A DNA stretch of 14,386 nt from positions 1 to 14,386 of the forward strand of contig JAVZXS010000012.1 of NCBI GenBank assembly GCA_038886535.1, read 5' to 3'. How positions within the stretch are numbered: position 1 is the first letter of the stretch; each line of letters opens with the position of its first letter. Shown here in pieces: positions 1 through 14,386 of the stretch. The notes under the pieces were generated by a model. It ran no database searches, was not told the DNA's origin, and worked only from the letters and a program-made list of their open reading frames with translations. Position numbers and translations under genes: made by a program. The DNA comes from Candidatus Micrarchaeia archaeon. Its GTDB lineage: Archaea > Micrarchaeota > Micrarchaeia > CABMEP01.

Positions 1-150
1 TGTATATCCTTTATTAGAAGCCCAATGTAGTAGTGTCATACCATACTCATCTACTACATTTGGATCTGCCCCTAAATTTATTAGTTCTATTACTTTATCT
101 AAATCTCCATTTTTAACAACTTCTAAAAGTCTCTTATCAATATTTCTCAT
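1..150 (-). CDS. Ankyrin-repeat array gene 13, 5' part only (runs off left edge)
   Basis: Not in the ORF track. Manual translation from ATG at 150 gives MRNIDKRLLEVVKNGDLDKVIELINLGADPNVVDEYGMTLLHWASNKGYT, the same N-cap as the other genes. It follows the conserved junction with GGAGG; an in-frame ATG also lies at 162. Confidence 0.93.
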   Translation of the reverse strand, partial: MRNIDKRLLEVVKNGDLDKVIELINLGADPNVVDEYGMTLLHWASNKGYT

Positions 151-172
151 AAATCCCTCCATTATGTTTATA

Positions 173-1675
173 CTAAAATATATATTTTTCCTTTGATTGT
201 TTTTTATCTTTATATTTCTTGTATATCTCTAGATTTTCAGGGCTTAGCATTTTAGTTTCTAGTCTTATTGATATTGAGGTAAAAAAAGTTTGAATTGTTT
301 TTGGTTTATTATCAACTTTTGCTTCGTGTAGTGGCTTTTTCCCTCTATTATTTTTTACATTTATAATATCTGGTGCTACTGTAAGAAGCAAAGAGATTGT
401 TTTTGTGCGACTATTGAAAGAAGCTAGATGCAGTGGTGTTATACTCATAAAATCCTTTACTTTAGCAGTGTCAGGTGCTACTTTAAGAAGCAGTGAGACT
501 ACATTTATGTACCCATTCCAAGAAGCCCAATGTAATGGTATCTTATCACCTGCATCCTTTTCTTTAGCAGTATTAGGAGCTACTTTAAGAAGCAGTAAAA
601 CTGTTTTTGTATGTCCTTTTTCAGAAGCTAAGTGTAGTGGTGTTTTACCATGGTTATCCTTTTCTTCAATAGTGTCAGGGGCTACTTTAAGAAGATGAGA
701 AACGATCTTTGTATGTCCATTCCAAGAAGCCCAGTGTATTGGTATCCAACCATTATTATCCTTTACTTTAGCAGTTTCAGGAGCTACTTCAAGAAGCAGT
801 AAAACTATTTTTATATGCCTATTTTCAGAAGCTAAGTGTAGTGGTGTTTTACCATCGTTATCCTTTTCTTTGGCGGTGTCAGGGGCTACTTTGAGAAACT
901 GTGAAACTATCTCTGTATGTCCTTTTATAGAAGCCAAGTGTAATGGTGTCCAACCATATCTATCTTTTATTTTAGCAGTATCAGGAGCTACTTGAAGAAG
1001 CAGTGAAACTATCTCTGTATGCCCATTTTCAGAAGCCAAGTGTAGTGGTATCCGACCATAGTTAGCCTTTTCTTTAGCAGTGTCAGGAGCTACTTTAAGA
1101 AGCAGTGAAACTATCTCTGTATGTCCCCCCGAAGAAGCATAATGTAGTGGTGTCCAATCATTATTATCCTTTTCTTTAGCAGTGTTAGAAGCTACTTTGA
1201 GAAGCAGTGAGACTACCTCTGTATGTCCTTCCGAAGAAGCCCAGTGTAATGGTGTCCGACCATCTTTATCTTTTTCTTTAGCAGTGTCGGAAGCTACTTG
1301 AAGAAGCAATAATACTACCTCTGGATGTCCCCACGCAGAAGCCAAGTGTAGGGGTGTCCGACCATTATTATCCTTTTCTTTAGCAGTGTTAGAAGCTACT
1401 TTGAGAAGCAGTGAGACTACCTCTGGATGCCCGTTCCGAGAAGCATAGTGTAATGGGGTTTCACCATCGTTATCCTTTTTTTTAGCAGTATCAGGAGCTA
1501 CTCTAAGAAGTAGTGAAACTATTTCTGTATATCCCCCTCTAGAAGCCCAGTGTAGTGGGGTCATACCTTCCTTATCTATTACATTTGGGTCCGCCCCTAA
1601 ATTTATTAGTTCTATTACTTTATCTAAATCTCCATTCTTAACAACTTCTAAAAGTTTCTCATCAATATCTCTCAT
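173..1675 (-). CDS. Ankyrin-repeat array gene 12 (500 aa; 12 internal 34-aa repeats; long tail ending KYIF)
   Basis: ORF 173..1687; start moved to the SD-preceded ATG at 1675. TPLHxASxxGHxxIVSLLL repeats. Length adds up as 38+12x34+54=500. Confidence 0.95.
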   Translation of the reverse strand: MRDIDEKLLEVVKNGDLDKVIELINLGADPNVIDKEGMTPLHWASRGGYTEIVSLLLRVAPDTAKKKDNDGETPLHYASRNGHPEVVSLLLKVASNTAKEKDNNGRTPLHLASAWGHPEVVLLLLQVASDTAKEKDKDGRTPLHWASSEGHTEVVSLLLKVASNTAKEKDNNDWTPLHYASSGGHTEIVSLLLKVAPDTAKEKANYGRIPLHLASENGHTEIVSLLLQVAPDTAKIKDRYGWTPLHLASIKGHTEIVSQFLKVAPDTAKEKDNDGKTPLHLASENRHIKIVLLLLEVAPETAKVKDNNGWIPIHWASWNGHTKIVSHLLKVAPDTIEEKDNHGKTPLHLASEKGHTKTVLLLLKVAPNTAKEKDAGDKIPLHWASWNGYINVVSLLLKVAPDTAKVKDFMSITPLHLASFNSRTKTISLLLTVAPDIINVKNNRGKKPLHEAKVDNKPKTIQTFFTSISIRLETKMLSPENLEIYKKYKDKKQSKEKYIF

Positions 1676-1697
1676 AAATTTCTCCATTATGTTTATA

Positions 1698-2354
1698 TTA
1701 GAATAAATACTTTTTCTTTATGTATTTTTTGTTAATTTTAAACATTTCAGTTTCTAGTTTTATTGATATTGAGGTAAAAAGTGTCTGAATTCTTTTTTTC
1801 TTATTATCTTCTTTTACTTTATATAATGCTGTTTCTTTATTATCATTTTTTACATTTACTGTATCTGGTGCTACTATAAGAAAAAAAGGAATTGTTTTTG
1901 TGCTACCCCACGAACAAGCATAGTGCAGTGGCATCTCATCCGTATTGCTCTTTATTTGAGCAGTATCAGGAGCTACTTTAAGAAGCAGTGAAATTACCTT
2001 TGTATGTCTATTCCAAGCAGCTTCGTGTAGTGGTGTCCAATTATATTCATTCTTTTCTTTAGCAATGTTAGGGGCCATTTTAAGAAGCAGTAAAACTACC
2101 TTCGTATGCCCCTTCCGAGAAGCATAATGTAGTGGTGTCATACCATCGTCATCCTTTTTTTTAACTGTGTTAGGGGCTACTTTAAGAAGATAAGAAACTA
2201 TCTCTGTATACCCCTTTTTGGAAGCCCAGTGTAGTGGAGTCATACCATAGTCATCTACTACATTTGGATTTGCTCCTAAATTTATTAGTTCTATTACTTC
2301 ATCTAAATCACCATTCTTAGTAACTTTTAAAAGTCTCTTATCAATTCTTTTCAT
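1698..2354 (-). CDS. Ankyrin-repeat array gene 11 (218 aa; 4 internal repeats; ends KYLF)
   Basis: ORF track; 38+4x34+44=218. Confidence 0.95.
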   Translation of the reverse strand: MKRIDKRLLKVTKNGDLDEVIELINLGANPNVVDDYGMTPLHWASKKGYTEIVSYLLKVAPNTVKKKDDDGMTPLHYASRKGHTKVVLLLLKMAPNIAKEKNEYNWTPLHEAAWNRHTKVISLLLKVAPDTAQIKSNTDEMPLHYACSWGSTKTIPFFLIVAPDTVNVKNDNKETALYKVKEDNKKKRIQTLFTSISIKLETEMFKINKKYIKKKYLF

Positions 2355-2376
2355 AAATTACTCCATTATGTTTATA

Positions 2377-2931
2377 TTAGAATATATATTTTTTCTCAAT
2401 GTATTTTTCTCTAATTTTTAGTTTTTTAGTTTTTAATTTTATTGATATTGAGGCAAAAAATGTTTGAATTGTTTTTGATTTATTATCTTCTGCTGCTTTG
2501 TGTAGTGGTGTTTTTTTGTCGTTGTTTTTTACATTTACAATATCTGGTGCTACTGTAAGAAGCAAGAAAACTATTTTTGTACGCCCAAAATATGAAACTG
2601 CATGTAGTGGCACCCAACCATATTTATCTTTTTCTTTGACAGTTTCAGTAGCTACTTTAAGTAGTAAAGAAACTATCTCTTTGCGATTATGTAAAGAAGC
2701 CAAGTATAGTGGTGTCCAACCATATTTGTCCTTTACTTTAATAGTTTCAGGAACTACTTTGAGAAGGTAAGAAACTACTTTTATATGCCCATATTCAGAA
2801 GCTAAGTGTAATGGAGTTCTGCCCTCCTTATCTACTACATTCCCATTGGCTCCTAAATTTATTAGTTCTATCACTTTATCTAAATTTCCTTCTTTAGCTA
2901 CTTGTAAAAGTTCGTGATCAATATTTTTCAT
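2377..2931 (-). CDS. Ankyrin-repeat array gene 10 (184 aa; 3 internal repeats; ends KYIF)
   Basis: ORF track; 38+3x34+44=184; SD AGAGG upstream. Confidence 0.95.
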   Translation of the reverse strand: MKNIDHELLQVAKEGNLDKVIELINLGANGNVVDKEGRTPLHLASEYGHIKVVSYLLKVVPETIKVKDKYGWTPLYLASLHNRKEIVSLLLKVATETVKEKDKYGWVPLHAVSYFGRTKIVFLLLTVAPDIVNVKNNDKKTPLHKAAEDNKSKTIQTFFASISIKLKTKKLKIREKYIEKKYIF

Positions 2932-2952
2932 AAATCCTCTGTTATGTTTATA

Positions 2953-3726
2953 TTAGAATATATATTTTTTCCTTATGTATTTTTTGTTAATTTCCTGCAT
3001 TTCAGTTTCTAGTTTTATTGATACTGAGCTAAAAAGAGTTTGAATTCTTTTTTGCAATTTCCAATCTTTTTCTGTTGCATTGTATAATGGTGTTTCTTTA
3101 TACTTATTTTTTGCATTTACTGTGTCTGGTGCTACTGTAAGAAAAAAAGGAATTGTTTCTGCATATCCCAGTCCAGAAGCAAGATGTAGTGGTGTATTAT
3201 TAGAACTATTTTCTTTTTTAGCAGTTTCAGGTGTTATTTTAAGTAATAAGGAAACTATCGCTATAGTACCATATTTAGAAGCATAGTGTATTGCTGTCCA
3301 ACCAGTATAATCTTTTATTTTAACAGTTTCAGGAACTGCTTTGATGAGTAGAAAAACTATTTTTTCATACCTACTCATAAAAGGATTAAAAGCATAATGT
3401 AGTGGTATCATGCCATAAACATCTTTTTTTTTGGCAGTTTCGGGGGCTATTTCAAGAAGCAGTGAAACTATTTTTGTATGCCCATTTTCAGAAGCTAAGT
3501 GTAGCGGTGTCTGACCCTCGTCATCCTCTACTTTAGCAGTATTAGGAACTACTTTAAGAAGCCGTGAAACTATTTTTGTATACCCATTTTCAGAAGCATA
3601 ATGTAGCGGTGTTCTACCCTTCTCATCTACTACATTCGCATTTGCCCCTAAATCTATTAGTTCTATTACTTTATCTAAATCCCCCTCCTCAGCAGCTCGT
3701 AAAAGTTCCTTATCAATATCTCTCAT
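2953..3726 (-). CDS. Ankyrin-repeat array gene 9 (257 aa; 5 internal repeats, one with a 3-aa insertion; ends KYIF)
   Basis: ORF track; ankyrin consensus; insertion in AFNPFMSRY. Confidence 0.95.
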   Translation of the reverse strand: MRDIDKELLRAAEEGDLDKVIELIDLGANANVVDEKGRTPLHYASENGYTKIVSRLLKVVPNTAKVEDDEGQTPLHLASENGHTKIVSLLLEIAPETAKKKDVYGMIPLHYAFNPFMSRYEKIVFLLIKAVPETVKIKDYTGWTAIHYASKYGTIAIVSLLLKITPETAKKENSSNNTPLHLASGLGYAETIPFFLTVAPDTVNAKNKYKETPLYNATEKDWKLQKRIQTLFSSVSIKLETEMQEINKKYIRKKYIF

Positions 3727-3747
3727 AATCCCTCCATTACGTTTATA

Positions 3748-4518
3748 TTAAAATATATATTTTTTTATAATGCGTTTTTCCTTAATTTTTGTTTTTTTGG
3801 TTGCTAATTTTATGGATATTGAGGTAAAAAGTGTTTGAATTTTTTTTATATTTTTAAAATCTGTTACTATGTATAGTGGTGTTTCTTTATAATTATTTTT
3901 TATATTTACTGTGTCTGGTGCTATCGTAAGAAAAAAAGGAATTATATTTATGCCACCACGCCAAGAAGCCCAGTGTAGTGGCACCCAACCATTTTTATCT
4001 TTTCCTTTAACAATTTCAGGAGCTACTTTAAGAAGTAAAGAAATTATTTTTGTATGACCATTTGCAGTAGCACAATGCAACGGCCTCAAACCATCTTTAT
4101 CTTTTTCTTTAGCGGTCTCAGGTGCTACTTTAAGAAATAAAAAAACTATTGCTATATGACCATTCCAAGAAGCCAAGTTTAATGGCGTTTTACCATATTT
4201 ATCCTTTTCTTTAGCAGTTTCAGGTGCTATTTCAAGAAGTAAGGAAACTATCTCAGTATGACCATGTATAGAAGCCCAGTGTAGTGGTGTTCTATCATCT
4301 ACATCCTTTTTTTTAGCCATTTTTTTTACTGTTTCAGGAAGTAATTCCAAAAGATAAGAAACTATTTTTGTATAACCATTTTTAGAAACTAAATGTAATA
4401 GTGTTAATCCCTTATTATCTACTACATTTACATCTGCACCTAAATTTATTAGTTCTATTACTTTATCTAAATCCCCGTTTTCAGTAGCCTTTAAAAGTTC
4501 TTCATCAATATCTCTCAT
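3748..4518 (-). CDS. Ankyrin-repeat array gene 8 (256 aa; 5 internal repeats, one with a 4-aa insertion; ends KYIF)
   Basis: ORF 3748..4530; start moved to ATG 4518 after GGAGG; 38+5x34+4+44=256. Confidence 0.95.
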   Translation of the reverse strand: MRDIDEELLKATENGDLDKVIELINLGADVNVVDNKGLTLLHLVSKNGYTKIVSYLLELLPETVKKMAKKKDVDDRTPLHWASIHGHTEIVSLLLEIAPETAKEKDKYGKTPLNLASWNGHIAIVFLFLKVAPETAKEKDKDGLRPLHCATANGHTKIISLLLKVAPEIVKGKDKNGWVPLHWASWRGGINIIPFFLTIAPDTVNIKNNYKETPLYIVTDFKNIKKIQTLFTSISIKLATKKTKIKEKRIIKKYIF

Positions 4519-4540
4519 AAATTCCTCCATTATGTTTATA

Positions 4541-5401
4541 TTAGAATAAATGCTTTTTCTTTATGTATTTTTTGCTAATTTCCTGTATTTTAGTATTTAG
4601 TTTTATTGATATTGAGGTAAAAAGCATTTGATTTTTTTCTTTTCTATTATTTTTTCTTACTTTATATAATGCTGTTTTTTTATTTTTGTTTTTTACATTT
4701 ACTGTATCTGGTGCTACTGTAAGAAGCATAAGAACCATTTCTGTATGTCCCCCTATAGAAGCCCAGTGTAGTGGTGTCATACCATAGTAAGTCTTTACTT
4801 TAGCAGTGTCAGGAGCTACTTTAAGGAGCAGTGAAACTATCTTTGCATGCCCCCTCCAAGAAGCTTCGTGCAGTGCTGTCCAACCATCGTTATTCTTTTC
4901 TTTAGCAGTTTCAGGGGCTACTTTAAGAAGTTGTGAAACTACCTTTGTATGTCCATCCCAAGAAGCCCAGTGTAGTGGTGTCATACCATCGTTATTCTTT
5001 TCTTTAGCAGTTTCTGGTGCTACTTCAAGAAGCAGTGAAACTATTTCTGTATGCCCTTCGGAAGAAGCATAGTGTAGTGATGTTGAACCAGATTTGCTCT
5101 TTTCTTTAGCAGTTTCAGGAGCTACTTCAAGAAGCAGTGAAACTATCTCTGTATATCCTTCCCAAGAAGCATGATGTAGTAGTGTCCAACCATCATTATC
5201 CTTTACTTTAGCAGTATTAGGTTCTACTTCAAGAAGATAAGAAACTATTCTTGTATGTCCCTTTTTAGAAGCCCAATGTAGTGGTGTTCTACCAAACTCA
5301 TCTATTACATTTGGGTCTGCCCCTAAATTTATTAGTTCTATTACTTTATTTAAATGCCCCTTTTTAGAAGCTTCAAAAAGTTTCTTATCAATGTTTCTCA
5401 T
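4541..5401 (-). CDS. Ankyrin-repeat array gene 7 (286 aa; 6 internal repeats; ends KHLF)
   Basis: ORF track; 38+6x34+44=286. Confidence 0.95.
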   Translation of the reverse strand: MRNIDKKLFEASKKGHLNKVIELINLGADPNVIDEFGRTPLHWASKKGHTRIVSYLLEVEPNTAKVKDNDGWTLLHHASWEGYTEIVSLLLEVAPETAKEKSKSGSTSLHYASSEGHTEIVSLLLEVAPETAKEKNNDGMTPLHWASWDGHTKVVSQLLKVAPETAKEKNNDGWTALHEASWRGHAKIVSLLLKVAPDTAKVKTYYGMTPLHWASIGGHTEMVLMLLTVAPDTVNVKNKNKKTALYKVRKNNRKEKNQMLFTSISIKLNTKIQEISKKYIKKKHLF

Positions 5402-5423
5402 AAATTCCTCTATTATGTTTATA

Positions 5424-6590
5424 TTAGAATATATACTTTTTTACAATGCGTTTTTCCTTAGTTTTTGTTTTTGGAGCTTCTAGTTTTATTGATATTGAGG
5501 TAAAAAGAGTTTGTATTGTTTTTGGTTCTTTATTAACTATTGCTTTGTGTAGTGGCTTTTCTCCTCTATTATTTTTTACATTTACAATATCTGGTGCTAC
5601 TGTAAGAAACAAAGAGATTGTTTTTGTATGATTACTGTAAGAAGCCCAGTATAGTGATGTCTTACCATTTTTATTCTTTACTTTAGCAGTGTCAGATGCT
5701 ACTTTGAGAAGCAGTGAAACTATATCAGTGTGTCCCTTCCAAGAAGCCAAGTGTAATGGGGTATTACCATCTTTATCTTTTTCTTTAGCAGTTTCAGGGA
5801 CTACTTTAAGAAGCAATGAAACTATCTCTATTTTTCCATCCGAAGAAGCCCAGTGTAATGGGGTATAACCATCATTATCCTTTTCTTTAGCAGTTTCAGG
5901 GGCTACTTTGAGAAGCAGTAAGACTATCTCTGTATGTCCCCTCCCAGAAGCCAAGTGTAGTGGCGTTAGACCATAGTAAGACTTTACTTTAGCAGTGTCA
6001 GAGGCTACTTTAAGAAGCAGTGAAACTATATCTGTATACCCCCCCGAAGAAGCATAGTGTAGTGGTGTCCAACCCCTATTATCCTTTTCTTTAGCAGTTT
6101 CAGGGGCTACTTTAAGAAGCAATGAAACTATCTCTATTTTTCCAGCCGAAGAAGCCCAGTGTAATGGGGTATGACCATCTCTATCCTTTTCTTTAGCAGT
6201 TTCAGGGGCTACTTTAATAAGCAGCGAGACTATCTCTGTATATCCCCCCCAAGAAGCCAAGTGTAGTGGTATCCAACCCTCATTATCCTTTTCTTTAGAA
6301 GTTTCAGGGGCTACTTCAAGAAGCAGTGAGACTACCTCAGTATGTCCCCTCCAAGAAGCCAAGTGTAGTGGTGTCCGACCATTCTTATCCTTTCTTTTAG
6401 CAGTGTCAGATGCTACTTTAAGAAGATAAGAAACTATTTTTGTATAGCCATAAACAGTAGCCAAATGTAGTGGGGTCATACCATCTTCATCTACTACATT
6501 CGCATCTGCCCCCAAATTTATTAGTTTTATTACTTTATCTAAATTACCGTTCTCTGCAGCTTTTAAAAGTTCCTCATCAATATCTCTCAT
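5424..6590 (-). CDS. Ankyrin-repeat array gene 6 (388 aa; 9 internal repeats; ends KYIF)
   Basis: ORF 5424..6602; start moved to ATG 6590; 38+9x34+44=388. Confidence 0.95.
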   Translation of the reverse strand: MRDIDEELLKAAENGNLDKVIKLINLGADANVVDEDGMTPLHLATVYGYTKIVSYLLKVASDTAKRKDKNGRTPLHLASWRGHTEVVSLLLEVAPETSKEKDNEGWIPLHLASWGGYTEIVSLLIKVAPETAKEKDRDGHTPLHWASSAGKIEIVSLLLKVAPETAKEKDNRGWTPLHYASSGGYTDIVSLLLKVASDTAKVKSYYGLTPLHLASGRGHTEIVLLLLKVAPETAKEKDNDGYTPLHWASSDGKIEIVSLLLKVVPETAKEKDKDGNTPLHLASWKGHTDIVSLLLKVASDTAKVKNKNGKTSLYWASYSNHTKTISLFLTVAPDIVNVKNNRGEKPLHKAIVNKEPKTIQTLFTSISIKLEAPKTKTKEKRIVKKYIF

Positions 6591-6612
6591 AAATCCCTCC
6601 ATTATGTTTATG

Positions 6613-7794
6613 TTAGAATATATATTTTTTCTCTGGTTGTTTTTTGTTAATTTTCCGCATTTCAGTTTCTAGTTTTATGGATATTGAGGTAAAAAGTGTT
6701 TGAATTCTTTTTTTTCTATTTCTTTCTGTTGCATCACTTTCTATTGCTTTGTATAGTGGTGTTTTATTATAATTATCTTTTACATTTACTGTATCTGGTG
6801 CTACTGTAAGAAGTAAAGAAATTACCTTTGTATTTCCCCCCCAAGAAGCCAAGTGTAGTGGTATCATACCATCGTTATCTTTTATTTGAGCAGTTTTAGG
6901 GGCTACTTTAAGAAGCAGTAAAACTATATTTATGTGTTCTCCCGAAGAAGCATAATGTAGTGGTGTCATACCATAGTTATCTTTTATTTGAGTAATTTCA
7001 GGGGTTATTTTGAGAAGCAGTGAAACTATCTCAGTGTACCCCCCCCAAGAAGCCCAGTGTAGTGGTGTCATACCTTTGTTATCTTTTTCTTTAGCAATGT
7101 CAGGGGCTACTTCAAGAAGTAGTGAAACTACTTTTCTACGTCCATTCCAAGAAGCCAAGTGTAGTGGTGTCCAACCCCTATTATCCTTTTCTTTAGCAGT
7201 TTCAGGGGCTACTTTAAGAAGCATGAAAACTATTTTTGTATATCCTTCTCTAGAAGCAATGTGTAGTGGTGTATGACCATCGTTATCCTTTTCTTTAGCA
7301 GTGTTAGAAGCTACTTTAAGAAGTTGTGAGACTATTTCTGTATGTCCCATCAAAGAAGCCCAGTGCAATGGTGTCATACCTTTGTCATCCTTTTCTTTAG
7401 CAGTTTCAGGGGCTACTTCAAGAAGTTGTAAAACTATTTTTGTATGACCTTCTGCAGAAGCCCAGTGTAGTGGTGTCTTACCCTCGTTATCCTTTTCTTT
7501 AACTGTTTCAGGGGCTACTTCAAGAAGCATGGAAACTATCTCTGTATGTCCCTTCCAAGAAGCAAAATGTAGTGGTGTCATACCATCGTTATCCTTTACT
7601 TTAGCAGTATTAGGGTTTACTTTAAGAAAATAAGAAACTATTTTTGTATGCCCATTTTTAGAAGCCCAGTGTAGTGGAATTCTACCATACTCATCTACTA
7701 CATTTGGATCAGCCCCTAAATTTATTAGTTCTATTACTTTATCTAAATCACCATATACAGCAGCTTCTAAAAGTTTCGCATCAATATCTCTCAT
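6613..7794 (-). CDS. Ankyrin-repeat array gene 5 (393 aa; 9 internal repeats; ends KYIF)
   Basis: ORF track; 38+9x34+49=393. Confidence 0.95.
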   Translation of the reverse strand: MRDIDAKLLEAAVYGDLDKVIELINLGADPNVVDEYGRIPLHWASKNGHTKIVSYFLKVNPNTAKVKDNDGMTPLHFASWKGHTEIVSMLLEVAPETVKEKDNEGKTPLHWASAEGHTKIVLQLLEVAPETAKEKDDKGMTPLHWASLMGHTEIVSQLLKVASNTAKEKDNDGHTPLHIASREGYTKIVFMLLKVAPETAKEKDNRGWTPLHLASWNGRRKVVSLLLEVAPDIAKEKDNKGMTPLHWASWGGYTEIVSLLLKITPEITQIKDNYGMTPLHYASSGEHINIVLLLLKVAPKTAQIKDNDGMIPLHLASWGGNTKVISLLLTVAPDTVNVKDNYNKTPLYKAIESDATERNRKKRIQTLFTSISIKLETEMRKINKKQPEKKYIF

Positions 7795-7816
7795 AAATTA
7801 CTCCATTATATTTATG

Positions 7817-8677
7817 TTAGAATAAATACTTTTTCTTTATGTATTTTTTGCTAATTTCCTTCATTTTAGTTTCTAGTTTTATTGATATTGAGGTAAAAAG
7901 TGTTTGAATTGTTTCTGGGTTATTATAAAATGTTGCTTCACGTAGTGGCTTTTCTCCTCTATTATTTTTTACATTTACAATATCTGGTGTTACTGTAAGA
8001 AACAAAGAGATTGTTTTTGTATGATTACTGTAAGAAGCCCAGTGTAATGGGGTCTCACCATTATTATTTTTTTCTTTAGCAGTATTAGTGGCTACTTTAA
8101 GAAGCTGTAAGACTATTTTTGTATGTTCCCGCAAAGAAGCCAAGTATAGTGGTGTCCTACCCTTGTTATCCTTTACTTTAGCAGTGTCAGGAGCTACTCT
8201 AAGAAGATTGGAGACAATTTCTGTATATCCGTTCAAAGAAGCACGATGCAGTGGTGTCATACCCTCATTATCCTTTTCTTTAGCAGTTTCAGGAGCTACT
8301 TTAAGAAGTTGTGAGACTATCTCTGTATGTCCCTCCCAAGAAGCATGATGTAGTGGTGTCCAACCCCTGTTATTCTTTTCTTTAACAGTTTCAGGAGCTA
8401 CTTTAAGAAGCATGGAAACTATTTCTGTATGTCCTTTTTCAGAAGCTTCGTGTAGCGGTGTCCAACCATAGTTATCCTTTACTTTAGCAGTGTCAGGGGC
8501 TACTCTAAGAAGATAAGAAACTATTTCTGTATATCCCAACCTAGAAGCCCAGTGTAACGGTGTTTTACCCTCCTTATCTACTACATTCGCATCCGCTCCT
8601 GAATTTATTAGTTCTATTACTTTATCTAAATCACCGTATATAGTAGCTTCTAAAAGTTCCTCATCAATATATCTCAT
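7817..8677 (-). CDS. Ankyrin-repeat array gene 4 (286 aa; 6 internal repeats; ends KYLF)
   Basis: ORF 7817..8689; start moved to ATG 8677. Confidence 0.95.
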   Translation of the reverse strand: MRYIDEELLEATIYGDLDKVIELINSGADANVVDKEGKTPLHWASRLGYTEIVSYLLRVAPDTAKVKDNYGWTPLHEASEKGHTEIVSMLLKVAPETVKEKNNRGWTPLHHASWEGHTEIVSQLLKVAPETAKEKDNEGMTPLHRASLNGYTEIVSNLLRVAPDTAKVKDNKGRTPLYLASLREHTKIVLQLLKVATNTAKEKNNNGETPLHWASYSNHTKTISLFLTVTPDIVNVKNNRGEKPLREATFYNNPETIQTLFTSISIKLETKMKEISKKYIKKKYLF

Positions 8678-8699
8678 AAATTCCTCCATTATGTTTATA

Positions 8700-9605
8700 C
8701 TAAAATATATATTTTTCCTTTGATTGTTTTTTATCTTTATATTTCTTGTGTATCTCTAGATTTTCAGTGCTTAGTATTTCAGTTTCTAGTTTTATGGATA
8801 TTGAGGTAAAAAGAGTTTGAATTGTTTCTTTTTTATTACTTTCTCTTGCCTCACTTTCTATTGCTTTGTATAGTGGTGTTTTTTTATACTTACTTTTTAC
8901 ATTTACTGTATCTGGTGCTACTGTAAGAAGGAAAGAGATTGTTTTTGCATGACTATTATAAGAAGCCAAGTATAGTGATGTTATACCCTCGTTATCTTTT
9001 ACTTTAGCGGTTTCGGGGGCTACTTTGAAAAGCAGTAAAATTACCTCTGTATGCCCTGCAAAAGAAACCCAGTGTAGTGGTGCCCGACCACCTCTATCCT
9101 TTTCTTTAGCAGTATCAGATGCTACTTTAAGAAGCATGGAAACTATCTCTATGTGTCCTTCCGAAGAAGCCCAGTGTAGTGGTATCCAACCACTATAATC
9201 CTTTACTTTAGCAGTGTCAGGAACTACTTCAAGAAGTAGTGAGACTATTTCTGTATATCCCAACCGAGAAGCCCAGTGTAGTGGTGTCCAACCATGGATA
9301 TCCTTTTCTCTAGCAGTTTCAGGGGCTACTTCAAGAAGATAAGAAACTACTTTTGTATGTCCCTCTCTAGAAGCATAATGTAGTGGCGTCATACCATCTT
9401 TATCCTTTACTTTAGCAGTGTTAGGGGCTATCTTAAAAAGATAAGAAACTATCTCTGTATGACCTTTTTCAGAAGCTAAGTGTAGTGGTGTCATACCTTT
9501 ATAATTTACTACATTCACATCTGCCCCCAAATTTATTAGTTCTATTACTTCATCTAAATTCCCATCTTCAACAGCCATTAAAAGTTTCCAATCAATATCT
9601 CTCAT
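8700..9605 (-). CDS. Ankyrin-repeat array gene 3 (301 aa; 6 internal repeats; long tail ending KYIF)
   Basis: ORF 8700..9617; start moved to ATG 9605; 38+6x34+59=301. Confidence 0.95.
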   Translation of the reverse strand: MRDIDWKLLMAVEDGNLDEVIELINLGADVNVVNYKGMTPLHLASEKGHTEIVSYLFKIAPNTAKVKDKDGMTPLHYASREGHTKVVSYLLEVAPETAREKDIHGWTPLHWASRLGYTEIVSLLLEVVPDTAKVKDYSGWIPLHWASSEGHIEIVSMLLKVASDTAKEKDRGGRAPLHWVSFAGHTEVILLLFKVAPETAKVKDNEGITSLYLASYNSHAKTISFLLTVAPDTVNVKSKYKKTPLYKAIESEARESNKKETIQTLFTSISIKLETEILSTENLEIHKKYKDKKQSKEKYIF

Positions 9606-9627
9606 AAATCCCACCATTATGTTTATG

Positions 9628-10593
9628 TTAGAATATATATTTTTTCTTTATGTATTTTTTGCTAATTTCCTGTATTTCAGTTTCTAATTTTATTGATATT
9701 GAAGTAAAAAGTGTTTGAATTGTTTCTTTTTTATTACTTTCTCTTGCTTCATATAGTGGTGCTTTTTTATCATTATTTTTTACATTTACAATATCTGGTG
9801 CTACTTCAAGAAGTAAAGAAACTACTTCTGTATATCCATTCCAAAAAGCATAGAGTAGTGGTGTCTGACCATAGATATCCCTTTCTTTAGCAGTATCAGG
9901 AGCTACTTTAAGAAGCTGTGAGACTATTCCTATATATCCATAACTAGAAGCATAATGTAGTGGTGTCATACCATCATCGTTCTTTTCTTTAGCAGTTTCA
10001 GGGGCTACCTTAAGAAGCAGTGGAACTATCTTAGTGTACCCCCCCCAAGAAGCCAAATGTAGTGGGGTCTGACCATCGTTATTTTTTTCTTTAGCAGTTT
10101 TAGGGGCCACTTTAAGAAGCTGTGAAACTATTTTTGTATGCCCCTCCAAACAAGCACTGTGTAGTGGTGTCCAGCCAAAGTTATTTTTTATTTGAGCAGT
10201 TTCAGGGGCTACTTTGAGAAGATAAGAAACTATTTCTGTATAACCTTTCCAAGAAGCCCAGTGTAGTGGTGTCTTACCATCGTTATCCTTTTCTTTAGCA
10301 GTGTCAGGAACTACTTCAAGAAGTAGTGAGACTACCTCTGTATGTCCCATCCAAGAAGCACAATGTAGTGGCGTCATACCATCTTTATCCTTTACTTTAG
10401 CAGTGTTAGGGGCTACCTTAAAAAGATAAGAAACTATCTCTGTATGGCCTTTTTCAGAAGCCCAGTGTAGTGGCGTCATGCCATACTTATCATCTATTAC
10501 ATTCGCATCTGCCCCCAAATTTATTAGTTCTATTACTTTATCTAAATCCCCATTCTTAACAGCTTCTAAAAGTCTCTTATCAATATTTCTCAT
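9628..10593 (-). CDS. Ankyrin-repeat array gene 2 (321 aa; 7 internal repeats; ends KYIF)
   Basis: ORF 9628..10605; start moved to ATG 10593; 39+7x34+44=321. Confidence 0.95.
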   Translation of the reverse strand: MRNIDKRLLEAVKNGDLDKVIELINLGADANVIDDKYGMTPLHWASEKGHTEIVSYLFKVAPNTAKVKDKDGMTPLHCASWMGHTEVVSLLLEVVPDTAKEKDNDGKTPLHWASWKGYTEIVSYLLKVAPETAQIKNNFGWTPLHSACLEGHTKIVSQLLKVAPKTAKEKNNDGQTPLHLASWGGYTKIVPLLLKVAPETAKEKNDDGMTPLHYASSYGYIGIVSQLLKVAPDTAKERDIYGQTPLLYAFWNGYTEVVSLLLEVAPDIVNVKNNDKKAPLYEARESNKKETIQTLFTSISIKLETEIQEISKKYIKKKYIF

Positions 10594-10615
10594 AAATTCC
10601 TCCATTATGTTTATA

Positions 10616-11068
10616 TTAGAATAAATACTTTTTCTTTATGTATTTTTTGCTAATTTCCTGCATTTCAGTTTCTAATTTTATTGATATTGAGGTAAAAAGA
10701 GTTTGAATTGTTTTTGGTTTATTATCAACTATTGTTTTGTATAGTGGTTTTTCTCCTATATTATTTTTTATATTTACAATATTTGGTGCTACTGTAAGAA
10801 ACAAAGAGATTGTTTTTGTACAACTATTGAAAAAAGTATAGTGTAGTGGTATCCAACCGTAGTTATCCTTTACTTTAGCATTGTCAGGGGCTACTCTAAG
10901 AAGATAAGAAACTATTTCTGTATGTCCCCAAAAAGAAGCCCAGTGTAGTGGTGTTCTACCATCCTTATCTACTACATTCGCATCTGCCCCCAAATTTATT
11001 AGTTCTATTACTTTATCTAAATTCCCACTCTTAACAGCTTCTAAAAGTTCCTCATCAATATATCTCAT
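10616..11068 (-). CDS. Ankyrin-repeat array gene 1 (150 aa; 2 internal repeats; ends KYLF)
   Basis: ORF 10616..11080; start moved to ATG 11068; 38+2x34+44=150. Confidence 0.93.
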   Translation of the reverse strand: MRYIDEELLEAVKSGNLDKVIELINLGADANVVDKDGRTPLHWASFWGHTEIVSYLLRVAPDNAKVKDNYGWIPLHYTFFNSCTKTISLFLTVAPNIVNIKNNIGEKPLYKTIVDNKPKTIQTLFTSISIKLETEMQEISKKYIKKKYLF

Positions 11069-11090
11069 AAATTCCTCCATTATGTTTATA

Positions 11091-11268
11091 TTAGAATAAA
11101 TACTTTTTTGTATGTTTTTTAGTCATTTTAATTTTTAATTTTATGGATATTGAGATAGAAATTATTAAAATTGTTCTTTATTTTTTAGTATTGTTTAGTA
11201 TAGTAGTATTTTTTTAGCAATATTTTTGTATTTATGATATTGGGGGCCACTGTATAAAAAATTATTTC
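11091..11268 (-). pseudogene. Decayed 3'-end remnant of an array ankyrin gene
   Basis: Manual translation ending at TAA 11091-11093 gives ...TILIISISISIKLKIKMTKKHTKKYLF*, preceded by an in-frame stop. Another frame further upstream gives IIFYTVAPNIINTK, matching the array's ISLFLTVAPNIVNIK. No N-cap or start codon is present. Confidence 0.8.
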
Positions 11269-11406
11269 TCCCCCCGCCCCCATTAATCAAATCATAATAC
11301 CATAACCATCCCCCCACCTCTTTCAAAGATTACCTTCTCCTACACCTAATACATAATAAATAATAGAAATAACATAACCCCAACTTAAACATACAAAAAC
11401 TATACT

Positions 11407-11528: not shown

Positions 11529-11552
11529 TATAAACAAAGAGGTGTGTTTATG
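11529..11552 (+). promoter_or_regulatory. RBS of the divergent ankyrin gene inside an inverted repeat (TATAAACA-AAGAGGTG-TGTTTATG)
   Basis: SD-like GAGGTG lies 5 nt before ATG 11550. The arms ATAAACA and TGTTTAT are perfectly complementary. Confidence 0.6.
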
Positions 11553-12110
11553 GGGAATAAAAAGCTAGATGAAGAGCTCATTAGTGCAGTAATGTGGTAT
11601 AGTATTGAAAAAACGGAAGAACTTATAAAATTGGGTGCTAATGTAAATGGAAGAGATGATAATGGCAATACTCCTCTACACTATGCTTGCTGGAAAGGAT
11701 ATATTGAAAAAATTCAGCTACTCTTTAAGAATAAAGCAAATATAAACGCTAGAAACATAGATGGTGATACTCCTCTTCATACAGCATGTCAGTGGGGAAA
11801 GAATAAAGTTGTTAAGTTTCTTATTAAAAATAATGTTAATGTAGATGTTATAAACAAGCAAGGGAATACGCCTCTTTATGAAGCTTGTGATATAGGAGCC
11901 ATTGATATAGTCCGAATACTTCTTGAAAGGAAACCTAATGTAAACGTTAAAAATAAAGAAAATGCTACTCCACTTTACAGAGTTAGTGGATACGTATACA
12001 CGGAACCATTAGTAAGAATTATATTTTCTTGTATAAATTTATTAATACCGACACAAATAAAGAATAAAATAAAAGGAATATCTTTCCACCGCCCAAAATA
12101 TATATTTTAA
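11550..12110 (+). CDS. Divergent ankyrin-repeat protein (186 aa; canonical 33-aa repeats; ends KYIF)
   Basis: ORF 11544..12110; ATG 11550 preferred because of the SD. TPLHYAC, TPLHTAC, TPLYEAC and TPLY occur at 33-aa spacing. The N-cap LDEELISAV...ELIKLGANVN is homologous to the array N-cap. Confidence 0.93.
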   Translation: MGNKKLDEELISAVMWYSIEKTEELIKLGANVNGRDDNGNTPLHYACWKGYIEKIQLLFKNKANINARNIDGDTPLHTACQWGKNKVVKFLIKNNVNVDVINKQGNTPLYEACDIGAIDIVRILLERKPNVNVKNKENATPLYRVSGYVYTEPLVRIIFSCINLLIPTQIKNKIKGISFHRPKYIF

Positions 12111-12134
12111 CCCTCTTGCCTGTAAAACAGATTT

Positions 12135-12273
12135 CTCTCTCTCAACGAATAAATAAATAATTTACAAACATTTTGCCCCCCCCAAGCCCCCTACAATAAA
12201 CCTCCCCCCTCACACCCATAAAATAAAACAACTCTCTCTCAACAAATAAATTCTCTCTCTCTCAATAAATAAA
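12135..12273 (+). repeat. Three dispersed copies of CTCTCTCTCAAYRAATAAA, with poly-C tracts between copies 1 and 2
   Basis: Copies at 12135-12153, 12232-12250 and 12255-12273. Shorter CTCTCTCA cores occur near 11438, 12454 and 12484. Confidence 0.7.
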
Positions 12274-12559
12274 CTAATAACTTTCAAAAAATTACCTTCC
12301 CCCATCTACCTAACAATCCTTTTGCTAATTATATTATACATTAATCTACGAAAAAATCGTTTTTTGGTAAATAATGAGTTTACAATATAGTTTCTACATT
12401 TTACAAAAAACAACAACTAACAACAAAAAAAAACATAATTACCTATTATCAAACTCTCTCTCAGCCCCCCTACCACACCCCATCTCTCTCACACCACCCC
12501 CCTTTACATACCTATGTATACTGCTTACCATACCAGTATTAGAAACTACAACAAACATC

Positions 12560-12611: not shown

Positions 12612-13469
12612 ATGAATTTTGAAGAATTACAACAAAAACTTAAAGATATATTACTACCAACAATATCTGACAATCTAAATAAAGGAATTTACAACTTTCT
12701 AAATTACAAAAAACAAAAAATTAAAGAATTCATTGAAAATCAATTAAAAGAAAAAGTTGAAGAAGTGTTTAGTGAGTATAAACTAGATGATAAAGATAAA
12801 AACGAAGTTTTTGAAATGATTTACGAATTTCTAAGTAGATATTTTAAAGAAGGCGAACTAATACCATTATACTATTCACCATCAAAAAACTATAATTACT
12901 ATATACCAAGCTATAATAAAGAAGATGTAAAACTTTTTTGGCTTAACCAAGAACAATATTATGTAAAAACATATCTGTATCTCAAAGATTATAGTTTTAA
13001 AGTAAAAGACTATAATATTTACTTTAATATCGTTGATTTTGAAAATACCGGCGATATCAACATAATAAAGAAAAACAATGTATTTATCCTAACCAACCTT
13101 GAAACACCTAAAAACTCAATAATAAAAAACGATAAAACACTTATAATTAACTTTAGTTATAGAAAACTGACTGAAGAAGAAGAAAAAAAATATAACTTAG
13201 AAAATAAAAAACCCAAAATAAAACAAGATAAAATAAATGAAATCATATACAAAACTATCTTAGATAACATTGACGATAAACAACTTTCAGAATTGCTTAA
13301 AAAACAAAAAGGCAATAAACCTTTACTTCTAGAACATATTTCAAAGTTTGTAAATAGAAACTTAAAAGATACAAGAGATTACTTTATACATAAAAATTGT
13401 AAACAATTCCTAATGGACCAATTTGACCTATTTGTAAAATCTAAAATTATAGAAAAAATCAATATATAA
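12612..13469 (+). CDS. Protein resembling the N-terminal region of a type III restriction-modification-like adenine DNA methyltransferase; catalytic domain absent
   Basis: Recognised from memory of family motifs: L.GIY.F.NYK, IYEFLSRYFKEGE, IPSYNKEDVKLFWLNQEQYYVKT..Y.KDYSF and TRDYFIHKN.KQFL...FDLFVK. No DPPY/NPPY or FxGxG motif occurs in the 285 aa. Strong SD. Not confirmed by search. Confidence 0.72.
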   Translation: MNFEELQQKLKDILLPTISDNLNKGIYNFLNYKKQKIKEFIENQLKEKVEEVFSEYKLDDKDKNEVFEMIYEFLSRYFKEGELIPLYYSPSKNYNYYIPSYNKEDVKLFWLNQEQYYVKTYLYLKDYSFKVKDYNIYFNIVDFENTGDINIIKKNNVFILTNLETPKNSIIKNDKTLIINFSYRKLTEEEEKKYNLENKKPKIKQDKINEIIYKTILDNIDDKQLSELLKKQKGNKPLLLEHISKFVNRNLKDTRDYFIHKNCKQFLMDQFDLFVKSKIIEKINI

Positions 13470-13527: not shown

Positions 13528-14386
13528 ATAAAAACATAACAACAATAAACAAAAATAAAACAATAATAAATTAAAAAAAGTAAAATACATTGATAAGAAA
13601 CAAGAATTATCAAAATTAGTTAACAACAAAAACATAACAATAATAAACAAAAATTCTAAAAACAATAAATAAAGCAACAGTAAATTAAAAAAGTAAATAC
13701 ATTGATAAGAAACAAGAATTGTCAAAACTAGTTGACAATAAAAATACAACAACAACAAACAAAAATAAAAACAATAATAAATTAAAAAAAGTAAAATACA
13801 TTGATAAGAAACAAAAATTGTCAAAACTAGTTAACAATAAAAACATAACAACAACAAACAAAAATAAAACAATAATAAATTAAAAAAAGTAAAATACATT
13901 GATAAGAAACAAGAATTATTAAAACTAGTTAACAATAAAAACATAACAACAACAAACAAAAATAAAACAATAATAAATTAAAAAAAGTAAAATACATTGA
14001 TAAGAAACAAGAATTATTAAAACTAGTTAACAATAAAAATATAACAACAATAAACAAAAATTCTAAAAACAATAAGTAAAATAATAGTAAGTTTAAAAAA
14101 AAGTAAAATACATTGATAAGAAATAAGAATTGTCAAAACTAGTTAACAATAAAAATACAACAATAATAAACAAAAATTCTAAAAACAATAAGTAAAATAA
14201 TAGTAAGTTTAAAAAAAAGTAAAATACATTGATAAGAAATAAGAATTGTCAAAACTAGTTAACAATAAAAATACAACAATAATAAACAAAAATTCTAAAA
14301 ACAATAAGTAAAATAATAGTAAGTTTAAAAAAAAGTAAAATACATTGATAAGAAATAAGAATTGTCAAAACTAGTTAACAATAAAA
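13528..14386. repeat. Non-coding A-rich tandem repeat, at least 8 units of 98-116 bp, running off the right edge
   Basis: Marker CATTGATAAG starts at 13588, 13700, 13799, 13897, 13995, 14111, 14227 and 14343 (spacings 112, 99, 98, 98, 116, 116, 116). Confidence 0.95.

Follow-up and report, generated by a model that had tools for sequence, protein, structure and literature searches.

The window analysed here is a 14,386-nt stretch of DNA that makes up the entire contig JAVZXS010000012.1 (hereafter C12; 14.4 kb) of GCA_038886535.1, a 40-contig, 1.14-Mb bin deposited as a Candidatus Micrarchaeia archaeon. The minus strand of the window contains 12 intact ankyrin genes, besides a partial one and a decayed remnant. 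This unusually regular ankyrin multigene array is confirmed as real, and its diversity is of a design-like kind. The most constrained part of the encoded proteins is their C-terminal tail which, as judged by searches of 1.84 billion representative proteins and of genome, viral and metagenome sets, is an orphan without relatives in these collections. The chances are put at about even that the array is a lineage-specific, polycistronic family of cytosolic ankyrin binders, i.e. a diversified panel that would be routed by a common C-terminal peptide to a shared partner.

The 12 complete open reading frames (ORFs), here called g01 to g12, fill positions 173-11080, and a thirteenth starts at about position 150 and exits at the contig start. 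Neighbouring genes are separated by a near-identical junction made of the stop codon, then TATAAACATAATGGAGGAATTT, then an ATG. The second ATG, which opens the motif M[RK]xID, is universal, and the first ATG of the junction is destroyed in six of 16 family genes, five of them in the window. This loss of the upstream ATG, the spacing of a GGAG(G) ribosome site 7-8 nt upstream of the second ATG, and an independent database record of g02 that likewise begins at the second ATG together indicate that the latter is the real start; every array gene has its own ribosome site. Counted from the second ATG, the stop-to-start gaps in the window are 22 nt at ten junctions and 21 nt at two, and the ORF list with these starts bears out the original prediction, made from the sequence alone, of 12 complete genes and one partial gene that are co-oriented and 21-22 nt apart. 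The DNA identity between array members is 70-76%.

A second contig of the bin, C20 (9.4 kb), carries four further array members, also on the minus strand, the last of which is cut by the contig end and has no N-terminus. The C-terminal part encoded by this gene and the N-terminal part encoded at position 1 of the window fit each other, for which reason the array, despite the lack of overlap between the two contigs, probably bridges them and continues from C12 onto C20. The family thereby amounts to at least 17 array genes across C12 and C20, plus three divergent ankyrin genes. This probable left flank, in which it had been proposed to look for the size of the array and for linked genes, has thus added four members but no physically linked effector, recombinase or secretion gene. 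At the other end, the decayed remnant (11081-11270) lies directly upstream of g01, so that the present promoter of the array must be located in or beyond it; scanning the DNA upstream of the array for promoters and terminators was of no help, with 14 promoter-like sites against 10.5 expected and no terminator. In two metatranscriptome runs from the study of run X4, no read fell on the array in the approximately 3% of each run that was examined, which is too little to judge expression.

Sixteen genes, 12 from the window and four from C20, were dissected into N-cap, internal repeats, C-cap repeat and tail. Each protein is made of a 38-residue N-cap, 1-11 internal repeats, one C-cap repeat (…LLTVAPDIVNVKNN…) and a tail of 44-59 residues, and the constant-variable-constant build initially described is therefore real. 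Out of 82 internal repeats, 79 have exactly 34 residues (102 bp), the three others having 35, 37 and 38; the 2-12 modules of 102 bp counted at first correspond to the 1-11 internal repeats plus the C-cap repeat. In the same line, the statement that no complete gene contains a stop or a frameshift holds in this assembly, the remnant at 11081-11270 being decayed. Contigs of run X4 carry single-base deletions at window positions 2155 (g11) and 4307 (g08), each in one contig at a depth of 5-8, which may represent either inactivated genes of another population or errors in the contigs. The first internal repeat is position-specific, its best match being another first repeat in 12 of 16 genes. Later repeats are not collinear between genes, and the nearest relative of a repeat lies in a different gene for 65 of 79. 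Internal segment duplications are visible in g12 (modules 2/4 and 6/8), besides those of g06 given in Table 1.

The assignment to the ankyrin family is based on the Pfam models Ank_2 (PF12796) and Ank (PF00023) at their curated cut-offs. All six proteins scanned, four of which are array members, match ankyrin profiles (Ank_2 E-values of 4e-19 to 6e-153); the Ank_2 score reaches 69-498 bits in the four array members and 99.3 bits in the divergent gene at 11544-12110, for a cut-off of 27.3. In the AlphaFold2 model of g01, the mean predicted local distance difference test score (pLDDT) is 83.7 and exceeds 90 for residues 1-80. The repeats are modelled as paired helices forming a solenoid, followed by one long helix (residues 118-145) along which the confidence falls from 69 to 44, and by five disordered last residues. 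The first half of the tail (xPLYxA…TIQTLF) is a degenerate ankyrin repeat; residues 268-325 of the Atlas model of g02 align to ankyrin repeats of other proteins, and the second helix of this last repeat continues into a basic linker with a free Y-[I/L]-F end. The ankyrin part itself is generic, its best solved relatives among sequence matches in the PDB being ankyrin-1/2, NompC and many designed ankyrin repeat proteins (DARPins), and a tblastn search of phage and plasmid records with g02 returned only generic ankyrin similarity, at an identity of at most 37%. On inspection of the sequences, an N-terminal hydrophobic stretch is visible in no member. The prediction of a two-copy g01 complex gave no support (score of 0.02 versus a mark of 0.42), a result that says nothing either way on self-association.

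The diversity of the repeats is concentrated at a few positions. With positions numbered from the T of TPLH, the Shannon entropy across the 79 repeats of 34 residues is 2.3-3.3 bits at positions 5, 8, 9, 31, 32 and 34, whereas none of the remaining 28 exceeds 1.76 bits. Renumbered from the beta-turn Asp, these six become ankyrin positions 10, 13, 14, 2, 3 and 5, respectively. The set classically randomised in DARPins comprises positions 2, 3, 5, 13, 14 and 33. According to the available text of PMC4308713, positions 2, 3, 5, 10 and 13 were chosen for an ankyrin library as the naturally most variable ones, and on beta-turn 1 and helix 1 they form a continuous binding surface. The six positions found here include all five of the library, and the variable positions of the array correspond to the canonical ankyrin target-binding surface. 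Tryptophan (15%) and tyrosine (9%) together account for 24% of the residues at these positions.

Substitution counts over 68 nearest-neighbour repeat pairs give 382 non-synonymous and 60 synonymous changes in the hypervariable codons, versus 446 and 298 in the framework codons, i.e. an odds ratio of 4.25. The non-synonymous rate (dN) of the hypervariable codons divided by the synonymous rate (dS) of the framework is 2.07, with a bootstrap range over pairs of 1.74-2.46, and the framework dN/dS is 0.43-0.48. Over all repeat pairs, the framework shows a dS of 0.43 and a dN of 0.19, and the six positions a dN of 0.93. The DARPin-like binder build suggested by the original prediction is upheld to the extent that the variable positions coincide with the ankyrin binding surface and evolve faster than the framework silent sites. 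Among the listed differences between sequencing runs within the array, 33 were classified, 20 as non-synonymous and 13 as synonymous, with three at hypervariable positions; many of the differences exchange common framework residues and may be mis-mapped paralogues or gene conversion.

The opposite behaviour is found in the tail. It is made, in order, of the degenerate repeat, a conserved IQTLFTSISIKL core, a lysine-rich stretch of variable length, which has a 10-residue insertion in three members, and the end K-Y-[I/L]-F. In pairwise comparisons, dN/dS is 0.65 for the N-cap (15 genes) and 0.84 for the C-cap repeat (16 genes), whereas over 16 genes it is 0.25 for the IQTLFTSISIKL core and 0.13 for the last five residues. 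Since the dS of these parts is 0.34-0.65 and synonymous codon variants are present, the conservation reflects selection at the protein level rather than homogenisation; nor is it a by-product of the ribosome site of the next gene, because this site lies at least 10 nt past the stop. All 19 tails aligned, those of the three divergent ankyrin genes included, end in F, and 18 of them have the Y. The tail regions of these three divergent genes are only 23-27% identical to those of the array, yet they have the same layout and a YIF end. Of all C-terminal tripeptides in the bin, counted over its 2374 ORFs of at least 60 residues, YIF is the most frequent. Nineteen ORFs end in Y[IL]F, 18 being these ankyrin genes and one an antisense artefact over the FEN1 and MBF1 genes.

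Relatives of the tail were looked for in several collections. A C-cap plus tail profile run against 401 Micrarchaeota genomes found the bin's own genes and otherwise short matches in 13 genomes (E-values of 8e-5 to 9e-3), and it gave no match in 185,579 species genomes, IMG/VR and JGI metagenomes. With residues 255-325 of g02 as the query, a word-indexed search of 5.8 billion clusters returned nothing. An exhaustive search of 1.84 billion representatives with a hidden Markov model (HMM) of the 19-tail alignment gave 11 matches at E ≤0.001, three of which are the locus's own proteins, namely g01, a C20 divergent gene and a version of the 186-aa divergent gene that comes from other runs and has two substitutions, and these are the only end-to-end matches. 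The other eight consist of two low-complexity matches and six long proteins in which at most 21 of the 45 profile positions are covered (1-21 or 13-30). Some known C-terminal motifs were considered and set aside. In the HbYX motif of proteasome activators the tyrosine is penultimate, and in the tail it is antepenultimate; beta-clamp, PIP-box and elongin BC-box-like (TIQTLF) motifs either do not fit in spacing or are missing from the divergent paralogues.

As to how such a panel might work, each member would grip a different ligand with its ankyrin face, and the free Y-[I/L]-F, carried by a flexible basic linker, would serve as a short docking motif read by one partner. The common C-terminal peptide would thereby hand all members to this partner, most likely an export or translocation machine such as an exporter or a coupling protein, and the panel would act as delivered effectors on another cell. 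Alternatively, the partner may be a shared intracellular machine such as a ring complex, for instance a protease; adaptor proteins and protease activators are known to dock on such machines by tethered C-terminal peptides. Export is favoured here since most of the large ankyrin expansions on record come from bacteria acting on eukaryotic cells, which constitutes a prior and not a finding. Substrates of VirB/D4-type systems typically possess positively charged, disordered C-termini, and the array tails match this description, with a net charge of +2 to +8 over the last 30 residues and disordered last residues. Type 1 systems, too, rely on C-terminal signals, and rickettsial Anks make use of them (PMC4315096). 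The idea of a repertoire feeding one shared partner, present in the original prediction, is consistent with a constant tail that is the most constrained part of the protein, but it is left without a linked partner gene.

Several points weigh against this reading of a panel of binders routed to a common partner. No partner is encoded on C12 or C20, which carry only ankyrin genes, a dGTP triphosphohydrolase (dGTPase), a DNA methyltransferase and a methyltransferase fragment. Likewise, no secretion system is physically linked to the array, the type IV secretion genes of the bin being on other contigs of mixed origin. The basic, lysine-rich tail is unlike the type 1 secretion signals described in the available text of PMC4315096. 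Besides, the hydrophobic moment of its last 18 residues is low (0.06-0.30) and does not indicate a membrane-binding amphipathic helix, an idea which was dropped as a leading one. With regard to selection, dN/dS on the six hypervariable codons alone is 0.96, and thus not above 1, so the case for positive selection hinges on the framework silent sites as a neutral yardstick, and gene conversion or codon bias could depress these. The corresponding Fisher p-value is overstated because repeat pairs are not independent. Finally, the taxonomic assignment of the array, presented below, depends on a single linked gene, which may have been acquired by transfer.

The bin turns out to be composite. The core of the bin consists of contigs C1-C5 and C16 (755 kb), whose tetranucleotide correlation is at least 0.987, and the remainder comprises 34 contigs (382 kb), all but three of which fall under the 5th percentile (0.949) of 10-kb core pieces. 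The correlation to the core is 0.85 for C12 and 0.91 for C20, compared to a median of 0.98 for 10-kb core pieces. A 20-kb piece of the core matches six of six genus mates, with genomes of 0.5-0.8 Mb that equal the core roughly in size or are smaller, at 71-94% DNA identity, whereas in the same genomes 20 kb of C7 find essentially no match and 3.3 kb of C20 a single match of 35 nt. Homologues in the core exist for no more than 26 of the 340 non-core ORFs. Ribosome sites point in the same direction, GGTG-type sites preceding 27-39% and GGAG-type sites 10-17% of core ORFs and most non-core contigs showing the reverse. In addition, a codon-use likelihood ratio trained on the core versus clearly non-core contigs classifies 10% of core and 93% of non-core ORFs as non-core-like, and 18 of the 22 ORFs of C12 and C20, including all three non-ankyrin genes, are non-core-like. 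The tail profile is found in none of eight other genomes of the bin's family.

The non-core fraction, of which 211 ORFs were scanned against Pfam, has several sources. It includes two F-type, conjugative type IV secretion clusters with a TraD-like coupling protein on C7 and C8 (none on C12 or C20), SecA, MnmE and Fur on C10, a Pel polysaccharide operon and a lipopolysaccharide heptosyltransferase on C11, Wzm/Wzt on C19, and SU10-like podophage capsid, adaptor and fibre genes on C6 and C21, together with other phage replication modules; phage capsid and tail genes are also seen on C22. The SecA of C10 is 58-77% identical to its relatives, every named one being from Bacteroidota. The only 16S gene of the bin (C23:1127-2654) is archaeal and 73-84% identical to the 16S of genomes from the same order, while the core contig C1 has the final 60 nt of a 16S of its own at its start, for which reasons C23 seems to derive from another archaeon. 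VirB2/TrbC-like pilin genes are found on core contig C2 (54117-55248 and 67501-67776), and a fifth, stronger TrbC match lies at C8:18933-19199, inside the foreign type IV secretion cluster. The TraU of C7 was tried as a guide to the host, with best plasmid matches of 40-47% (Ca. Manganitrophus, Pelobacter, Nitrosophilus), and was rejected because, in a mixed bin, it says nothing on C12.

The only taxonomic marker physically linked to the array is the dGTPase of C20. Sixteen relatives stand out at 49-56% identity, the next ones being at 41% or below, and all five named ones among the 16 come from metagenome-assembled genomes of Brevinematia, Brevinematales or Spirochaetia, Brevinematia being a class of Spirochaetota. 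These sequence signals suggest that C12 is probably mis-binned and probably not archaeal. The owner would be, with somewhat better than even chances, a Brevinematia-like bacterium of low GC, or else a mobile element of such a bacterium; another bacterium, an archaeon or a virus is a less likely though substantial alternative, and the Micrarchaeon itself an improbable one. Hot-spring metagenomes contain the stretch: seven runs from four studies share words with it, and of two runs compared, from two studies, one is nearly identical to the window and the other 1-3% different. More generally, about a third of the bin (382 of 1137 kb) is foreign DNA that the standard contamination score of 0.25% does not flag, which matters for anything inferred from the small contigs of this bin.

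The sequences that flank the array look like accessory or mobile DNA. On C20, the array converges with a plus-strand block made of two divergent ankyrin genes, the dGTPase and a 472-aa N6 DNA methyltransferase, the dGTPase lying about 1.9 kb from the array end, and this tail-to-tail arrangement of dGTPase and methyltransferase with the array end looks like a defence-island setting. Domain and defence-model scans of C12 and C20 detected no recombinase, deaminase, secretion gene, phage or plasmid hallmark or candidate partner, and neither a tRNA nor an Rfam family was found on the two contigs. Within the window, the 285-aa ORF at 12612-13469 covers positions 105-338 of a 1057-position type III methyltransferase model and looks truncated. 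One contig of run X1 departs from the window at 13459, and an alternative version of the contig end may therefore exist. The units of the terminal 116-nt tandem repeat contain a partly palindromic core and could represent an iteron-type origin or be the cause of the assembly break. Runs rich in C (up to C8) and CT dinucleotide repeats, both unusual at the approximately 30% GC of this contig, occur at 11240-11330 and 12110-12520, and public runs differ from the window by one additional C at 12175, one missing at 12204 and two missing in a CT run at 12252, as hypermutable simple repeats do. The coordinates of all features are collected in Table 1.

Table 1. Features of the window (contig C12) and of the linked contig C20; positions without a contig name refer to the window.
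Feature	Position	Strand	Remarks
5' part of a further family gene (N-cap, start of first repeat)	1-150	-	runs off the contig, probably onto C20
g12, 500 aa	173-1675	-	11 internal repeats plus C-cap repeat; long tail variant, end KEKYIF
g11, 218 aa	1698-2354	-	3 internal repeats
g10, 184 aa	2377-2931	-	2 internal repeats
g09, 257 aa	2953-3726	-	4 internal repeats (one of 37 aa)
g08, 256 aa	3748-4518	-	4 internal repeats (one of 38 aa)
g07, 286 aa	4541-5401	-	5 internal repeats; sole member with an HLF end in place of Y[IL]F
g06, 388 aa	5424-6590	-	8 internal repeats; internal segment duplications (modules 2/6 and 4/7)
g05, 393 aa	6613-7794	-	8 internal repeats
g04, 286 aa	7817-8677	-	5 internal repeats
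g03, 301 aa	8700-9605	-	5 internal repeats; long tail variant
g02, 321 aa	9628-10593	-	6 internal repeats
g01, 150 aa	10616-11068	-	1 internal repeat; first intact array gene
Decayed 3' remnant of one more member (C-cap, tail, junction before g01)	11081-11270	-	several stops/frameshifts
Divergent ankyrin gene, 186-188 aa	11550-12110	+	33-aa repeats; tail region 27% identical to array; end KYIF
285-aa ORF, N-terminal part only of a type III-like DNA methyltransferase	12612-13469	+	flank, outside the family
AT-rich tandem repeat	13528-14386		unit of 116 nt, 8.1 copies, 90% matches; runs off the contig end
Divergent ankyrin gene	C20 122-793	+	
Divergent ankyrin gene	C20 805-2514	+	
dGTP triphosphohydrolase (dGTPase)	C20 2678-3988	+	TIGR01353, 256 bits versus cut-off of 152
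N6 DNA methyltransferase, 472 aa	C20 4220-5638	+	NPPY

Four other explanations of the array have to be weighed. According to one of them, possible but held with clearly less confidence than an even chance, the array is an intracellular conflict system, either a set of defence sensors for varied phage or plasmid proteins or the counter-defence set of a mobile element, directed against varied host proteins; the shared tail would couple the members to one intracellular machine rather than to an exporter. Because of the flanks, this is nearly as good a reading as export: the C20 dGTPase fits the corresponding PADLOC model (5.9e-104), two methyltransferase genes are nearby, one for a DNA methyltransferase and the other truncated and type III-like, the contig ends in an iteron-like tandem repeat, the family is absent from all other genomes searched, and the variation at the binding face resembles that of an arms race. 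Against it, no effector domain (nuclease, NTPase, TIR etc.) is fused or adjacent to the ankyrin proteins, for which PADLOC-DB 2.0 provides only generic matches, to its 'Ankyrin' and PDC-M72A repeat models. Moreover, the dGTPase remains under the NCBIfam anti-phage cut-offs (266.5 versus 400 bits) and passes only that of the general dGTPase family; C12 and C20 carry no hallmark gene of a phage or a plasmid, and searches for close relatives found none of the dGTPase in genome or viral contig collections and none of the methyltransferase in viral contigs. A role as symbiosis factors of a Micrarchaeota episymbiont, in which the bin would be correct and the panel would act on the archaeal host cell, perhaps through a VirB2-like pilus, is improbable. 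The contig was indeed binned with a Micrarchaeota core genome that contains VirB2-like pilin genes on C2, and accessory islands are often compositionally odd and strain-specific. Nevertheless, C12 and C20 stand apart from this core in tetranucleotide composition, in codon use and in the type of ribosome site, the tail profile is missing from the eight family genomes and gives weak partial matches in just 13 of 400 other Micrarchaeota, the linked dGTPase is Brevinematia-like, and the Bacteroidota SecA, the foreign archaeal 16S and the phage capsid genes demonstrate that the non-core contigs come from several other organisms.

The array could also be explained by neutral processes, as a gene accordion amplified by unequal crossing-over and now drifting, in which the variable sites would merely be the least constrained surface and the members would have no division of labour. 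Such a scenario, to which we attach little probability, accounts for identical junctions acting as unit boundaries, for the decayed member upstream of g01, for a dN/dS of about 1 on the hypervariable codons alone and for a fairly high framework dN/dS. It does not sit well with the intactness of all 16 dissected genes despite a DNA identity of 70-76%, with non-synonymous change at the six positions at twice the framework silent rate, with strong purifying selection on the tail in every copy, or with the enrichment of aromatic residues at the variable sites, typical of binding surfaces. Lastly, a chimeric gene order or number generated by short-read assembly of similar repeats is the most improbable of the explanations considered. 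Inside the array, the public contigs of two runs are fragments of 200-600 nt that cannot verify gene order or copy number, a few joints skip or go back on short anchors, and the contig ends inside a gene. On the other hand, each gene reads as an uninterrupted ORF between canonical junctions, the DNA of the members diverges by about 25%, which is much more than what an assembly collapses, difference-free pieces of run X1 cover many parts of the array, and the anchors of the joints, 20-45 nt long, are of the kind that often arises from repeats.

Comparison with known systems helps to situate the family of routed ankyrin binders favoured here. As described in the available parts of PMC8683736, DARPins are built from an N-cap, internal repeats, a C-cap and a randomised paratope. 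The array resembles DARPins and the ANK-N5C library (PMC8683736 and PMC4308713, as far as their available text goes) in its N-cap, its near-consensus, self-compatible internal repeats and its C-cap, as well as in a diversity located at beta-turn and helix-1 positions and in a variable number of repeats. In contrast to DARPins, it is natural, has a repeat of 34 rather than 33 residues, is organised as a polycistronic gene array, and adds a conserved C-terminal helix, a basic linker and a Y-[I/L]-F end. This comparison concerns how the proteins would work and not their descent.

Intracellular bacteria also possess families of ankyrin effectors, for example the Orientia tsutsugamushi Anks (available text of PMC4315096, PMC4148323, PMC5957444 and PMC11895443), which share with the array many ankyrin paralogues per genome, the lack of an N-terminal signal peptide and the combination of a variable ankyrin head with a conserved C-terminal module. 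In the Orientia proteins, according to the same sources, this module is an F-box that leads to the SCF machine of the host, and a C-terminal type 1 export signal is present. No match to an F-box or PRANC family, as present in the ANK/F-box adaptors of poxviruses, Orientia and Wolbachia, was found at E-values up to 0.01 in the six proteins scanned against Pfam. The LDAVTSIF content of the C-terminal 60 residues is 37-63% in Orientia Anks (PMC4315096, available text) and 40-57% in the array, in agreement with what is expected of a type 1 substrate, whereas the low KHPMWC content and acidic isoelectric point (pI) expected from the same text are at odds with the array tails, for which values of 22-32% and 8.8-10.5 are obtained (the whole-protein pI being 6.7-9.7). 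Unlike the Orientia Anks, the array members are grouped in one tight, operon-like array instead of being dispersed, their tail family has no relatives, and they come from a hot-spring source with no evidence of an intracellular lifestyle.

The ankyrin families of poxviruses and giant viruses also form tandem, lineage-specific expansions with varied heads and a shared C-terminal adaptor, and they are read as host-range or arms-race factors; they belong to eukaryotic viruses and consist of monocistronic genes with a PRANC/F-box tail. The array differs from them by its prokaryotic layout, with Shine-Dalgarno sites and 22-nt spacers, and by an unrelated tail. Near-identical frameworks with few variable surface positions are likewise a feature of the ANK, TPR and WD repeats of fungal NLRs, where, as stated in the available text of PMC4986451, the repeat number changes by unequal recombination and large NOD-like receptors, which also have effector domains, use the repeats as their sensor. 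The array proteins are by contrast stand-alone ankyrin proteins, their diversity being spread over many small genes. Conversely, the likeness to variable lymphocyte receptors (VLRs) that had been put forward for the array is not supported, as nothing in it resembles their somatic assembly. A VLR locus comprises an incomplete germline gene between promoter-less partial cassettes, with a linked deaminase or recombinase; in the array, every unit has a ribosome site, a start and a stop of its own and is thus a complete gene, and no deaminase or recombinase was detected on either contig.

Ankyrin expansions as such are well known, and the novelty of this one lies in a tidy array that follows the design logic of engineered binders and in its orphan tail. 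The array reproduces this logic by means of fixed caps, a consensus framework and variation restricted to the binding face and the repeat number, and the orphan C-terminal peptide is more conserved than the fold itself. It is tempting, though doubtful at this stage, to go one step further and propose that the basic linker with its free Y-[I/L]-F would be an undescribed C-terminal sorting or docking signal, and that the array would be a natural, thermostable DARPin-like library, in which about 20 binders of different specificity, belonging to a hot-spring bacterium or mobile element, would be served by one machine and act on another cell or on invading DNA. If the peptide is indeed such a signal, it would define a new route together with about 20 natural binders, and the 34-residue hot-spring framework could be of interest to protein engineers. 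The targets of these binders, if this holds true, could in turn reveal what the organism fights or exploits.

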